From the sequence record MT465573: 40,282 nucleotides of DNA, one strand, 5' to 3'. A program made the position numbers and the translations under genes. The notes below the pieces were generated by a model that was given only the letters and a program-made list of their open reading frames with translations, searched no databases and was not told the DNA's origin. Within the stretch, counting starts at the first letter, position 1, and each line of letters opens with the position of its first letter. Source of the DNA: Escherichia phage P1723. Below, in pieces: positions 11,818 to 40,282 of the stretch.

Positions 11818-13646
<1,829 letters not shown>

Positions 13647-27538: not shown

Positions 27539-28075
27539 ATGTGCTGGCCTGTGATGATTGGTATGGCGGCTATGAGCGCTGCAAGCTCGATTAAGGGTTC
27601 ATATGACACCGCGAAGATGATTGGTCAACAGACCGATGCGTCTCGTCGTCAGAACGCTGAGCTAATGAAACAGGCTCGCTGGGAGAACGCTTCGAACAAC
27701 CTAGACATCCGCTCTAAGTACGAAGAGGCTTCCAACGAGATTACAAACAACAACCTGCAAGCAATCCAGACCCAAGGTGCCGTAAGAGCCGCTATTGGTG
27801 AAGGACTGCTGGGCGGGAACTCAATGGACAGAATCCAGCGTATTACAGATGCTGAGTCCATCCGAGCTAACGCAATGGTCAACGAGAACTTCAAGCGAGA
27901 CTATCAGTCAATGTTTGCTGGTAACGTTGCCCGTCAAGACTCTGTGAACTCACAGGTTAAACTTAATCAACGCAACGAACAAAAGGGTCAGTCCAAACTG
28001 TCACAAGCACTTGGTGTTGGTCTTGCTGCTGGTTCTGGTGCACTTCAATCGTATGCTTCCAACGGGAAGAAATAA
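27539..28075 (+). CDS. 14: Internal virion protein B, gene 14
   Basis: 178 aa; AAGGAGG RBS; position and size of T7 gp14. Confidence 0.85.
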   Translation: MCWPVMIGMAAMSAASSIKGSYDTAKMIGQQTDASRRQNAELMKQARWENASNNLDIRSKYEEASNEITNNNLQAIQTQGAVRAAIGEGLLGGNSMDRIQRITDAESIRANAMVNENFKRDYQSMFAGNVARQDSVNSQVKLNQRNEQKGQSKLSQALGVGLAAGSGALQSYASNGKK

Positions 28076-34876: not shown

Positions 34877-36754
34877 ATGGCAAACGTCATTAAGACAGTT
34901 TATACGTACCCATTAGATGGCACCACGACTGACTTTGCGATTCCCTTTGAGTACCTGTCACGTAAGTTCGTGGTGGTAACGCTCATTGGTCAAGACCGTA
35001 AAGAGCTGGTTGTTGTGACCGATTATCGCTTCGCTACCCGCAACCTTATCTCTACGACTAAGGCATGGGGACCAGCCGATAACTATCAACAGATTGAGAT
35101 TCGTCGATACACTTCTGCAAGTGAACGTCTGGTTGACTTCAGTGATGGTTCCATCCTGCGAGCTACCGACCTTAACGTATCTCAGATTCAGACCCTGCAC
35201 GTTGCTGAAGAAGCGCGAGACCTGACCGCTGATACCATTGGCGTTAACAACGATGGCAACCTTGATGGTCGTGGTCGTCGTATCGTTAACGTGGCAGATG
35301 GTGTGGACGCTGGTGACGTTGTTACCGTAGGCCAGATGAACCGTTGGTCTGGTAGTGCTGCCGACAGCGCCAATAAAGCCAAGGTGTCCGAGACCAACGC
35401 CAAGACCTCTGAGACAAACTCAAAGGCTTCCGAGCTGTTAGCCCAGAAGTGGGCTGAGAACCCTAAAGGAACACCTGTGGTCTCCAGTCAGTATTCCGCT
35501 AAGCATTGGGCGTTGACCTCTGAGGATAGCGCTAATGCGTCTGCAACCTCTGCGGGTAACTCTCAGGCACAAGTAGCGAACGCTAAGACACAGGCTGACC
35601 GTGCTGGTGGTTACGCCAATGACGCTATGGGTTACCGCGATGCAGCCAACACGTCTGCTCAACAGGCCGCTGTATCTGAGGGCAACGCTGCGACATCTGC
35701 AAGTAACGCAAAGACTGAATCCGATAAGCTAATTCAGTTTAACACTCTGGTTGACCGGATTAACGGAGTGGCTGTACGTCAGGTTGGTGAGTTTGAGGTC
35801 CACAACTCTCGTACTTACGCTAAGCCGGGTACAGTGTATGGGGATGGTCAACTGCTGAACCGCAACCAGTTCCCTGCACTAGTAGCTGAGTTACTGGCAG
35901 GACACCTCCCGGTTGTCTCTGACTCCGAATGGCTGGCTGACCCCGGTAAACGTGGTTGCTATACCCTAGGTAACGGTACGACCACTTTCCGTGTACCAGA
36001 CCTCAACGGTGTCTATGCGGGTTCCATTAAGGCTCCTGTGTTCCGTGGTGACGCTGGGTTTACTGTAGGTGATGTTCAGAAGTCAGCTCTACCAAACATT
36101 GAGGGTCTGATTGCACTTGCCGATAATGAGCTGGCCTCCAGTGCCTCTGGTGCATTCTACAACGCTGGGCGCTCCAACAAAGGTGCAACTAACGATACCG
36201 GCGGTGCTCAGTTAGGTTTCGACGCGTCACTGTGGAACGAAATCTACAAGAAGGACACCAACGAAGCCCGAATGAACTCCGTGGTAATCGTATGGGTCAT
36301 CCGTACTCACGGGGTGGTGAACAATCCGGGTTCTGTAGATGCCGCTGTGTTGTCTTCTCGTGTCGAGCAGGTTTATACCGAACTGCTTACACGTATGGTT
36401 GCTAATGAGAACCTCCAGAAGTCTGGACAGAAGTTCCTTCGCCGAGTGTTTAGCGACCGCACGTCTCAGGGGCAACTTTCGACTGGAAGAACAGTGACTT
36501 GCTCTGAGGATATTCTCAACAAGATGCTAGTAATTGGCGCACACACCGATAGCCAAAACCCAAACTCTCAGATATATCGTTGTAGCCCGTTCCTCCAGCC
36601 GAACACTGCTGACCGAATGCACCTCACTCTATCTAACTGGTCGTACACCTTAGAGTTCCCTGCGGCGAATCAAGTTAAACTAGTAGCGGCTACAGGTTCT
36701 GGAGTACAGGCAATCAACTATATTGACGTAGTGTGCGACTACCCACAAACGTAA
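34877..36754 (+). CDS. 17: Tail fiber protein, gene 17 (T7-like N-terminal domain, divergent distal region)
   Basis: 625 aa; residues 1-150 (MANVIKTV..FEYL.RKFVVVTLIG.DRK...DYRFATR...KAWGPAD, GSILRA.DLNV.QIQT.HVAEEARDLT.DTIGVNNDG.LD.RGRRIVN) match T7 gp17; distal part differs and contains a tail-collar-like motif. Confidence 0.95.
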   Translation: MANVIKTVYTYPLDGTTTDFAIPFEYLSRKFVVVTLIGQDRKELVVVTDYRFATRNLISTTKAWGPADNYQQIEIRRYTSASERLVDFSDGSILRATDLNVSQIQTLHVAEEARDLTADTIGVNNDGNLDGRGRRIVNVADGVDAGDVVTVGQMNRWSGSAADSANKAKVSETNAKTSETNSKASELLAQKWAENPKGTPVVSSQYSAKHWALTSEDSANASATSAGNSQAQVANAKTQADRAGGYANDAMGYRDAANTSAQQAAVSEGNAATSASNAKTESDKLIQFNTLVDRINGVAVRQVGEFEVHNSRTYAKPGTVYGDGQLLNRNQFPALVAELLAGHLPVVSDSEWLADPGKRGCYTLGNGTTTFRVPDLNGVYAGSIKAPVFRGDAGFTVGDVQKSALPNIEGLIALADNELASSASGAFYNAGRSNKGATNDTGGAQLGFDASLWNEIYKKDTNEARMNSVVIVWVIRTHGVVNNPGSVDAAVLSSRVEQVYTELLTRMVANENLQKSGQKFLRRVFSDRTSQGQLSTGRTVTCSEDILNKMLVIGAHTDSQNPNSQIYRCSPFLQPNTADRMHLTLSNWSYTLEFPAANQVKLVAATGSGVQAINYIDVVCDYPQT

Positions 36755-36803
36755 GGAACACGAGCAGGGACACGGATAGTCCCACACAATAAGGAGGTGA
36801 CAC

Positions 36804-37010
36804 ATGATGTCATTGGATTTTAACAATGGTACGATTACCATTCCTGCGGCTGCTGCTGGAGATGTCGCCTTGCGTACCTTTTGGGGCCTATCGTTGAACG
36901 AATGGTTCTACGTGGCGGCTATCGTCTACACCCTCGTGCAGATTGGCTCCAAGATGTTCGACAAGTGGCTTGAGTACAAGAAGATGGAATTAGGAGGTCG
37001 CAATGAGTAA
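36804..37010 (+). CDS. 17.5: Class II holin, gene 17.5
   Basis: MMSLDFNN...LSLNEWFYVAAIVYTLVQIG.K matches T7 gp17.5; AAGGAGGTG RBS. Confidence 0.85.
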   Translation: MMSLDFNNGTITIPAAAAGDVALRTFWGLSLNEWFYVAAIVYTLVQIGSKMFDKWLEYKKMELGGRNE

Positions 37011-37275
37011 ACCTGATGCAACCCTTATGTCTCTCCTTGAGATGCTGGACACCAACATGGCACAGCAGATGCTGATGGACCTACAGAACCCTGAGCGTAG
37101 AACCCCTCAGCTCTATAACGCCATAGGTAAACTGCTGGAGCGCCATAAGTTCCAGATTGCTAAGCTGAAACCTGATGCAAACATCCTTGGTGGACTGGCT
37201 GGAGCACTTGGCGACTATAACGCTCAGGTAGGCTCCGATGGTCTAACCGAAGACGAGCGACCAACGCTCAACTGA
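37003..37275 (+). CDS. 18: Terminase small subunit, gene 18
   Basis: 90 aa, position and size of T7 gp18; ATGA-type overlap with the holin gene. Confidence 0.85.
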   Translation: MSKPDATLMSLLEMLDTNMAQQMLMDLQNPERRTPQLYNAIGKLLERHKFQIAKLKPDANILGGLAGALGDYNAQVGSDGLTEDERPTLN

Positions 37276-37282
37276 TAGGCAT

Positions 37283-37316
37283 ACTCAAGGTCACTACATG
37301 TGGTGGCCTTTATGAA
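37283..37316 (+). promoter_or_regulatory. RNase III site R18.5-like hairpin
   Basis: TGATAGGCATACTCAAGGTCACTACATGTGGTGGCCTTTATGAA; shares TGATAGG..ACTCAAGGTC...GGTGGCCTTTATGA with 14351. Confidence 0.5.
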
Positions 37317-37373
37317 TGCTTAACACAACTGTAGGCGTTCCTACGTGAAATCTGATAAAAGACGGGAGGCATT

Positions 37374-37838
37374 ATGCTGGAGATTTTAAAGAAGGCTCTC
37401 CCAATCCTAGTGTTAATCGGCGTGTTTGCCTTAGGGTATAACGTTGGTAGCACCAAGGTGGAGACCAAATGGAAGGAGGAGATACACAATGAGTACGTTA
37501 CGAAGACAGAAGCTAAACAAGCTACTCAGGCTGCGGTCAACAAGATTAGCGCTAAGTACCAAGAAGACTACTCCGCGCTGGAAGGCAGCACTGATAGGGT
37601 TATTGCTGACCTTAAGTCTGATAACAGGCGGCTGTACGCCAAAGTATGCGCCCCCGGCTCAGCCAGAAGCAGTGACGGTCGATGCGAGTCTGTTATCCCC
37701 GTCGAACTACACGAGTCAACTGTTAGAAGCCTTGTCAAAATAACAGAGGCTGCTGACCTGAAGGAGAAAGCCCTTCAAGACACTATTCGTAAACTGATAG
37801 CTAACCATAAGGAGAACAACAGTGAGCGACTACGATAA
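37374..37838 (+). CDS. 18.5: i-spanin (Rz-like), gene 18.5
   Basis: N-terminal TM helix [14 protein letters not shown], then KWKEE.HNEYV...[24 protein letters not shown] matching T7 gp18.5. Confidence 0.85.
37489..37743 (+). CDS. 18.7: o-spanin (Rz1-like lipoprotein), gene 18.7, nested in the +1 frame of 18.5
   Basis: MSTLR...[25 protein letters not shown]: lipobox Cys after a hydrophobic stretch; N-terminus matches T7 gp18.7 (MSTLREL...KKTLPRWKGALIGLFL). Confidence 0.8.
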   Translation: MSTLRRQKLNKLLRLRSTRLALSTKKTTPRWKAALIGLLLTLSLITGGCTPKYAPPAQPEAVTVDASLLSPSNYTSQLLEALSK

Positions 37839-39573
37839 CGATAAGATTATCCAACAGCTCAAATCAGACTTCGTTGCCTTCCTGTTTGTATTATGGAGGG
37901 CACTGAATCTACCCAAGCCAACCAAGTGTCAGATTGACATGGCGAAGGTAGTAGCTGACGAGCGTAACAAGAAGTTCATCCTTCAGGCATTCCGAGGTAT
38001 CGGGAAGTCGTTCATCTTGTGTGCCTTTGTGGTCTGGACGCTATGGCGTAACCCGCAACTAAAGGTCCTCATTGTGTCGGCCTCCAAGGAACGTGCGGAT
38101 GCTAACAGTATCTTCATTAAGAACATCATCGACTTGTTGCCTTTCCTTCATGAGCTTAAGCCTCGTCCGGGACAGCGTGACAGTGTGATTAGCTTTGACG
38201 TTGGACCAGCCATGCCTGACCATAGTCCGAGCGTGAAGTCAGTGGGTATTACTGGTCAGTTGACTGGTAGTCGTGCTGATATCATCCTAGCAGATGACGT
38301 AGAGGTTCCCGGCAACAGTGCTACCGCTGGTGCTCGTGAGAAGCTATGGACTCTGGTACAGGAGTTTGCGGCCTTGCTGAAGCCTTTGGATAGCTCTCGG
38401 GTTATCTACTTGGGTACACCACAGACCGAAATGACTCTCTATAAGGAACTGGAAGATAACCGTGGTTACACGACCACAATCTGGCCAGCTCAATACCCAC
38501 GCAACAAGGAAGAGGACTTGTATTACTCTCAGCGACTGGCCCCGATGCTACGTGAGGAGTACGACGAGTACCCTGAGATGCTTGCTGGTCAACCTACCGA
38601 CCCTGTGCGATTCGACCACGATGACCTTCGTGAGCGTGAGCTTGAATACGGGAAGGCTGGTTACACGTTGCAGTTCATGCTTAACCCTAACCTCAGTGAT
38701 GCCGAGAAGTACCCATTACGTATGCGTGATTGCATCGTAGCGGCCTTGGACATCGAGAAGGCACCAATGCATTACCAATGGCTACCAAACCGTCAGAACG
38801 TGAATGACGAGCTTCCTAACGTGGGACTTAAGGGCGATTCCCTGCACAGTTACCATGAGTGCTCTAACCGTTCCTCTGAGTATACCCAGAAGATTCTTGT
38901 GATTGACCCTAGTGGTCGAGGCAAGGATGAGACGGGTTATTGCGTCCTGTATGCGCTGAATGGCTACATCTACCTGATGGAAGCTGGCGGCAAGGACGGG
39001 TACGAAGAGAAGACGTTGATTGAGTTAGCCAAGATTGCCAAGAAGTGGAAAGTACAGACAGTGGTCTTTGAGTCCAACTTCGGTGACGGTATGTTTGGTA
39101 AGGTCTTCCAGCCAATCCTGCTACAGTATCATCCTGCTACACTTGAGGAGATTCGTGCACGAGGCATGAAGGAGTTACGTATCTGCGATACCTTAGAGCC
39201 AGTCTTAACGACTCACCGTCTTGTCGTTCGTGATGAGGTCATCCGTGAGGACTATCAGACAGCTCGTGACAAGGATGGGAAACCCGATGTGTCCTACAGT
39301 CTCTTCCACCAGTTCACACGCATCACGCGCGTTAAGGGAGCCTTGAAGCACGACGATAGGCTGGATGCCTTAGCGTTAGGCGTAGAGTTCCTTCGTGAGT
39401 CCATGAAGTTGGACAGCGTTAAGGTTGAAGAAGAGAAGGTGCTGGAGTTCCTTGAGCACCACATGGAGTCGCCCTTAGTGAGCAACAAGCACATCCACCA
39501 GATGACCTTTGGTGCACTTGATGTCTACTATGAGGATGACGACTTGTCTAGCGGTAACATCATGGGATGGTAA
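37822..39573 (+). CDS. 19: Terminase large subunit, gene 19 (GTG start)
   Basis: 583 aa; [59 protein letters not shown] near-identical to T7 gp19; no in-frame ATG near the N-terminus; GTG at 37822 follows a TAAGGAGAA RBS. Confidence 0.93.
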
Positions 39574-39676
39574 TACCTTAAGTCACATTGAGTGCTTATG
39601 CACTAATAGTGAATACTTATGGAGGTACACATGGAAGTGGCCTCTATAAGAAATTCCTTATGAATCAATAGGTTTG

Positions 39677-39699
39677 CATTAACCCACACTATAGGGAGA
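39677..39699 (+). promoter_or_regulatory. Phage RNAP promoter (phiOR-like) near the right end
   Basis: TTTGCATTAACCCACACTATAGGGAGAGGG, +1 at 39694; no substantial ORF downstream. Confidence 0.8.
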
Positions 39700-40092
39700 G
39701 GGTACTCAAAGACTACCTTAAGTTATCATTATAGTTATTCACCATAAGTATTCATTCAAGACCATTATGACCATTAACAGATTACTTAGAGTGTCCTTAT
39801 GAGAGGGTGGATATTATTATTATAATCACCCTATCCTAAAGATACTTAGAGGCACCTAGCTATCCTATAGTTATATCCTAAAGAGGTAAACGCTACGGTG
39901 TACTCAAATGGGTCTATAGGTGTTCCTGATATGATGATACACACTATCACATCACTCACACCTGACCACCTAAACGTTAACCACCCAAGGGTCTCTCATG
40001 GTCTCTTGTGGTCTACCTTTGGTTAGGCCGTACCCTTTGGTGATACCTTTGGAGGTCCCTTTAAGAATCCTACAGAAAAATCTGAGTGACTA

Positions 40093-40282
40093 TCTCAAAG
40101 ATACAACTCCCAAAGTTCCCCCATAGCCCTCTTTAAGTTCACCTTCGGTGGCCCTTCCCCTTTGGTTACTCTTTAAGTGACACCTTTGGTGGTTCGTTTG
40201 GTTCTCCTGAGGCGGTGTTGAGACCCTTTGGTGAGACATTAGGGAGACCATTTGGTGACATTTGGTTATGCCTCAGTCCCTA
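40093..40282. repeat. Putative terminal-repeat / genome-end region with CCTTTGGT-type short repeats
   Basis: TCTCAAAGATACAACTCCCAAAGTTCCCCCATAGCCCTCTTTAAG resembles the T3/T7 left-end sequence; CCTTTGGT/CCCTTTAAG repeats continue across the window end into positions 1-80. Confidence 0.35.

Follow-up and report, generated by a model that had tools for sequence, protein, structure and literature searches.

Does the terminase large subunit gene of Escherichia phage P1723 begin at a GTG codon, and, if it does, is the weak start codon an adaptation that tunes expression of the protein? A preliminary description of this DNA had proposed both, and we examined the two questions over the whole 40,282-nt stretch that was analysed (record MT465573; hereafter the window) and in its relatives. 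By megablast of the 2.3-kb region of genes 18.5 and 19 (37300-39600), the window belongs to the genus Foetvirus: its best match is Escherichia phage SRT7 (Autographiviridae, Studiervirinae, Foetvirus), at 99.0%, and in the same search all phage records besides SRT7 reach at most about 76% identity. The genes at issue lie near the right genome end, in the order holin 17.5, small terminase 18, spanins 18.5/18.7 and 19, which is the same in T7, T3 and SRT7:

36804-37010, plus strand: holin, gene 17.5 equivalent (Pfam Phage_holin_2_2)
37003-37275, plus strand: small terminase (TerS), gene 18 equivalent (Pfam DNA_Packaging_2)
37374-37838, plus strand: gene 18.5, Rz-like i-spanin of 154 aa (Pfam Phage_lysis/Rz), with its TAA at 37836-37838
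37822-39573, plus strand: predicted terminase large subunit CDS, gene 19 homologue, 583 aa, stop TAA (Pfam and PDB matches)

The 583-aa ORF carries the Pfam domain PF22530 (Terminase-T7 RNaseH-like nuclease domain; E=1.2e-38, 132 bits against a cutoff of 27), with Terminase_6N at 21.3 bits, slightly below its cutoff of 22. It matches PDB 4bij_A (T7 gp19, DNA maturase B) over residues 6-473 with E=3.6e-275 and 8dgc_E (a 586-aa T7-like TerL) over residues 5-578 with E=0, and the alignment with 8dgc_E shows that a Walker-A-like GIGKS is kept. Domain content, homology and synteny all identify the predicted product of 37822-39573 as a T7-type terminase large subunit, and the PF22530 and 4bij matches bear out the identity that the preliminary description had given to the gene. 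The region also holds ORFs nested within these genes. A putative Rz1-like o-spanin gene (T7 18.7 equivalent; MSTLRRQKL...LITGGC...) lies inside gene 18.5 in the +1 frame (37489-37743, plus strand), with a GGAGGAG Shine-Dalgarno (SD) sequence upstream and without annotation in both SRT7 records. Within the terminase gene, a 92-aa GTG-start ORF (38462-38740, plus strand) begins 640 nt from the gene start, near the 646-nt offset of the overlapping T7 gene 19.2, which also has a GTG start.

Upstream of the conserved part of the terminase, the reading frame leaves little room for a start. From 37798 the in-frame codons read TAG CTA ACC ATA AGG AGA ACA ACA GTG, and the relevant features are as follows:

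37798-37800, plus strand: in-frame TAG, the upstream limit of the gene 19 frame, making 37801 the earliest possible start
37809-37814, plus strand: predicted SD sequence of gene 19, AAGGAG, separated from the GTG by 7 nt; within gene 18.5, the same letters encode Lys-Glu
37822-37824, plus strand: GTG at which the terminase large subunit gene very probably starts, the sole canonical start in the permitted interval and the start in the SRT7, T7 and T3 annotation

Between 37801 and the conserved motif (codons 16-25), the only in-frame ATG, GTG or TTG is GTG 37822, and the next in-frame ATG is codon 40 (37939), past the conserved N-terminus. Thus two statements made from the sequence at the outset, that no in-frame ATG lies near the conserved N-terminus and that the GTG follows an SD at good spacing, hold. 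The string that was then quoted as preceding the GTG, TAAGGAGAACAAC, is correct as sequence (37808-37820, unique in the window) but is not exactly adjacent to it, as a single extra A at 37821 intervenes, a trivial difference. The duplex of the SD with the 3' end of 16S rRNA has a predicted energy of -9.3 kcal/mol, which falls in the upper third among 37 mapped window genes. Because the arrangement AAGGAG-N5-9-GTG is rare, with only 3 occurrences on the plus strand of the window, and because this copy corresponds by homology to the start annotated in T7 and in T3, the gene 19 start site is beyond chance. The site has the make-up of canonical SD-led GUG initiation, namely an SD 5–9 nt upstream, no alternative AUG and a position kept in homologues. 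We regard it as highly probable that translation of the terminase large subunit truly begins at GTG 37822, and that this start is an inherited trait of the family. The predicted mature N-terminus is (M)SDYDNDK...; in the searchable literature, we found neither N-terminal nor start-site-mapping data on gp19 of T7 or T3.

Translation could in principle begin elsewhere, at ATT 37846, ATC 37849 or ATG 37939, and yield a terminase with a shorter N-terminus. All three codons are in frame, and AUU and AUC are able to initiate at 1-2% of the AUG level (bioRxiv 10.1101/063800), but none of the three has an SD upstream, and in every relative compared an SD and a start codon are kept at the position equivalent to 37822. 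A start at ATG 37939 would moreover remove the conserved N-terminus, including the block from the motif to PTKCQID that is conserved from T7 to Pseudomonas phages. We hold such a start to be extremely improbable, and we rejected ATG 37939 as well as the in-frame near-cognate codons ATA 37807, ATT 37846 and ATC 37849, the last three for want of an SD.

A GTG start would be less telling if such starts were frequent in this genome, and the automated annotation of SRT7 does imply three further ones in the window, at 1922, 12087 and 27551 (gp44, gp28 and gp8 equivalents). Their SDs are poor or absent, and the same ORFs offer better SD-backed ATGs at 1898, at 12129 (or one further upstream) and at 27539, the last with TAAGGAGG and an SD energy of -13.5 kcal/mol; judged by these features, the three GTGs are probably mis-called starts. 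We rejected the idea that GTG starts are common here because each of the SRT7-derived GTGs has a better ATG, and for the same reason gene 19 alone among the mapped genes is forced to use an SD-backed non-ATG start. The SRT7 record also annotates RNA polymerase twice.

The annotated starts of related phages, with which the preliminary description had suggested a comparison, agree with this assignment. In both the GenBank and RefSeq records of SRT7 (NC_048002 / MH370477 gp1), the terminase starts at the equivalent GTG with the same annotated 17-nt overlap with gene 18.5; the start context is identical to that of the window, with essentially no difference at the gene 19 start, the records being 39,883 and 40,282 nt long, respectively, and several early and middle gene starts of SRT7 lacking an exact mapping to the window. 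The reference annotations of gene 19 likewise begin with GTG at a homologous position in T7 (NC_001604, 37370-39130) and T3 (35591-37351), in both cases preceded by the strong SD sequence TAAGGAGG, and the distance from the GTG to the conserved motif is 18 codons in T7 and T3 versus 16 in the window. T7 shares with the window the gene order 17.5-18-18.5/18.7-19 and a gp19 protein that is about 81% identical, but differs in a gp19 N-terminus that is 2 residues longer (STQSNRNALVVAQLKGDF) and in a 21-nt gap between genes 18.5 and 19 in place of the 17-nt overlap. GTG begins 6 of the 57 CDSs in the T7 annotation (2.8, 6.3, 7.7, 17.5, 19 and 19.2). In T7, the GTG is also overlapped by an ATG in another frame (AATGTG; survey locus L085 1869-1873, which is T7 37368-37372), and the same context is present in loci L008, L009, L011-L013, L016 and L019. 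With the same strong SD upstream, this ATG begins an ORF of 11 codons, and in the T7-group phages it could compete with the gene 19 GTG for initiating ribosomes; it is absent from T3 (AACGTG) and from the window (ACAGTG).

In Przondovirus and Kayfunavirus (Klebsiella phage Pharr, pK3-24 and Escherichia phage Ro103C3lw), the terminase gene resembles that of the window in having a non-ATG start behind a strong SD, but the codon is TTG rather than GTG and the gene typically shares 4 or 8 nt with gene 18.5. The curated Pharr record gives the TTG start together with an annotated RBS, and in the przondovirus pK3-24 the large terminase gene is the sole TTG-start ORF among 45 (PMC11533715). In Yersinia phage fPS-21 (H56, LT961844 35096-37608), the terminase gene seems to be divided between two CDSs labelled 'DNA packaging', and the same match also covers annotations for a homing endonuclease and a hypothetical protein, which suggests that its gene 19 holds an intron or an intein-like insertion.

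As the preliminary description had stated, the gene 19 start in the window overlaps the end of gene 18.5:

37822-37838, plus strand: dual-coding overlap of genes 18.5 and 19, 17 nt, in different frames

In gene 18.5, G37822 falls at the second position of the Ser150 codon AGT, and G37822A would give S150N and G37822T would give S150I. An ATG here would thus force S150N on the spanin, and we considered this dual-coding constraint as the cause of the GTG trait; it is real locally, but cannot account for the trait, as GTG is also used in T7 and T3, whose two genes do not overlap. Among relatives, spacing at the 18.5/19 junction varies from -26 to +778 nt, with no relation to start-codon type. Nor do the two genes of the window form a translationally coupled stop/start pair, the stop of gene 18.5 lying 16 nt downstream of the GTG and the junction being variable in relatives. 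Because junction geometry varies and is unrelated to the start codon, the trait does not stem from coupling to gene 18.5.

The overlap, and the location of the gene 19 SD within gene 18.5, could also be taken to mean that gene 19 is expressed mainly via gene 18.5, either by termination-reinitiation coupling or as a frameshift fusion, with the GTG serving only as a restart codon. We consider this very improbable. The overlap is not conserved (T7 has its 21-nt gap and T3 one of 9 nt), and a stop 16 nt past the GTG is a poor geometry for reinitiation. Neither a slippery site nor a stimulatory structure was found: the 100-nt initiation region has no significant RNA fold (MFE -12.3 kcal/mol, z=-0.98, with 35 of 200 shuffled sequences folding as well), and 36500-40282 gave no match to Rfam families at E<=1. 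Spanins of the Rz type are membrane-anchored and periplasmic, and on such general knowledge a gp18.5 of this kind is incompatible with fusion to a cytoplasmic motor.

By shuffle folding and Rfam, there is likewise no structured or riboswitch-like control element at the gene 19 start, and no terminator or notable promoter was seen near it. The infC gene, with its AUU start, has an autoregulatory circuit, of which there is no sign at gene 19 of the window. The curated Pharr record annotates a 'terminator' 51-70 nt inside the large terminase coding sequence (L004 1064-1083); at the equivalent place in the window, no comparable hairpin with a T-run was detected.

To place the GTG in a wider context, we surveyed annotated records and 80 IMG/VR loci whose encoded relatives share 74-81% protein identity, which gave 85 loci for gene 19. 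One uniform SD-based start rule was applied to four neighbouring genes per locus, and the comparison was anchored on the motif F[VIL].FLF.LW. All 85 loci have an SD and an ATG, GTG or TTG 16-22 codons before this motif, but the codon itself varies: TTG in 48 loci, ATG in 21 and GTG in 16. The neighbouring genes behave differently, with ATG in all 82 loci for gene 18, in 82 of 83 for gene 18.5, and in 71 of 74 for gene 17.5, where GTG takes its place in 3 loci, two of T7 and another from the T7 group. Among 66 distinct gene 19 proteins, the starts are TTG in 30, ATG in 21 and GTG in 15, and counted as distinct start contexts they are ATG 12, TTG 11 and GTG 8. Fitch parsimony on a simple neighbour-joining tree of the 66 proteins, from a sample dominated by few genera, requires at least 11 changes of start codon. 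Where very close relatives differ, the change is an A-to-G transition beside an unaltered SD (L015 versus L016, L071 versus L073 and L003 versus L025), and TTG, reachable only by a transversion, characterises deeper clades (Przondovirus, Kayfunavirus Ro103C3lw and L083).

Non-ATG starts of gene 19 occur in at least five genera (Teseptimavirus, Teetrevirus, Przondovirus, Kayfunavirus and Foetvirus). Outside the enterobacterial Studiervirinae, the large terminase gene is annotated with ATG in all those sampled, namely Ghunavirus, Pifdecavirus, Ningirsuvirus, Percyvirus, Vectrevirus, Drulisvirus, Friunavirus, Phikmvvirus and a Roseobacter phage; the Pseudomonas-infecting Studiervirinae also use ATG. 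Because genes 18 and 18.5 nearly all begin with ATG and gene 19 mostly does not, the non-ATG start is gene-specific and widespread in enterobacterial T7-like phages. As far as aligned start sites can tell, the non-AUG start is an inherited, gene-specific trait of the enterobacterial T7-like phages (Studiervirinae), in which some lineages have ATG. In some lineages, genes 18.5 and 19 are separated by an additional ORF of about 600 nt, for example Erwinia phage pEp_SNUABM_12 (L089 41-658, hypothetical), and three other ATG-start loci have 18.5-19 gaps of 574-778 nt; all lineages with the extra ORF start the terminase gene with ATG.

How such a start would work follows from standard bacterial initiation. 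The AAGGAG located 7 nt upstream would position the 30S subunit at the gene 19 start, and the initiator fMet-tRNA would read GUG 37822 as Met. Generic SD-led GUG starts of E. coli share this mechanism with the window, having an SD at 5–9 nt and a near-cognate codon read by the initiator tRNA, and GUG begins about 14% of E. coli genes. The large terminase of tailed phages is a transient catalytic packaging motor that is absent from the virion. A lower output of gp19 would be tolerable, and possibly useful, because the terminase is catalytic and transient and is not a stoichiometric component of the virion, and a GTG start suits a catalytic protein for which demand is low. Reporters in E. coli that start with GUG or UUG reach 10-100% of the AUG level (bioRxiv 10.1101/063800), and the expected consequence of GUG would be a modest cut in gp19 synthesis, of up to about 10-fold relative to AUG on the same strong SD. 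The position of the start and its conservation can be read directly from the sequences, and from them we infer reduced expression of gp19 and, possibly, a benefit to fitness. The expression level that a GTG would set is not strictly required, because close relatives with the same SD carry ATG.

The suggestion in the preliminary description that a non-ATG start may tune expression stands as plausible, given that GUG and UUG are weaker and that the trait is specific to gene 19, but falls short of being demonstrated, as relaxed selection fits at least equally well. Under relaxed constraint, the start is real but the identity of its codon is nearly neutral, its first base drifting among A, G and T; AUG would not be kept by selection because gp19 is needed only in small catalytic amounts and the SD is strong. 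This account competes with adaptive tuning only and leaves the start call untouched. Several results of the survey point to it, namely the division of the distinct start contexts into approximate thirds, the restriction of flips at the tips of the tree to A-to-G transitions between near-identical phages with the SD unchanged while TTG lies deeper, and the absence of any compensating weakening of the SD in ATG lineages. Against these stand the roughly two thirds of distinct sequences that are in the weaker states, which drift does not explain if AUG is costless, and the mostly ATG starts of gene 17.5, a non-essential neighbour (71/74); the dominance of few genera and the simplicity of the tree also count against it. 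We place relaxed constraint close to, but somewhat short of, an even proposition.

Active tuning of dosage would mean that a weak start has been selected to hold the large terminase below a harmful level while a strong SD secures ribosome recruitment; the possible harms are premature or off-target nuclease or ATPase activity and imbalance with gp18. The specificity of the non-ATG start to gene 19, as opposed to genes 17.5, 18 and 18.5 of the same loci, its persistence in at least five genera and the reduced initiation at GUG and UUG (bioRxiv 10.1101/063800) all speak for tuning. On the other hand, viable lineages with ATG are scattered across the gene 19 tree, the Pseudomonas-infecting Studiervirinae and other subfamilies use ATG, and no measurement of gp19 abundance was found in the searchable literature. 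We treat active tuning as a serious but tentative possibility that falls well below an even one. The survey data fit both accounts, and we lean slightly towards relaxed constraint.

A more specific form of selection, in which weak GTG or TTG starts keep the large terminase scarce or late, for example to avoid premature cutting of concatemers or to lessen or delay detection by Avs-type STAND proteins, seems to us improbable. Avs1-4 recognise terminase and portal (PMC12803255), and Avs STAND sensors bind the large terminase directly; the PDB entry 8dgc noted above is the SeAvs3 entry, containing the 586-aa T7-like terminase. By analogy, a link between Avs and weak terminase starts could be drawn as a matter of compatibility only.

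The GTG start of gene 19 is already known, being annotated in SRT7 and, for a long time, in T7 and T3, a point absent from the preliminary description, and is ordinary for this phage group; the finding in the window adds nothing beyond those annotations. We found no explicit statements on the T7 gene 19 GTG, and no experimental-evolution changes at the start codon, in the searchable literature, and one candidate source, PMC8365609, proved irrelevant to the gene 19 start, as it concerns gene 19.5. The gene-specific polymorphism of ATG, GTG and TTG across genera is an incremental observation, explicit discussion of which we did not find in the literature searched. For annotation, it means that gene callers should keep GTG or TTG for T7-like gene 19 and should not trim the gene to a downstream ATG. 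More broadly, where late genes share transcripts, the choice of start codon is one of the few translational knobs, and the polymorphic start of the large terminase gene is a simple case, supplied by nature, in which to ask if the amount of terminase affects packaging or the evasion of terminase-sensing defences.
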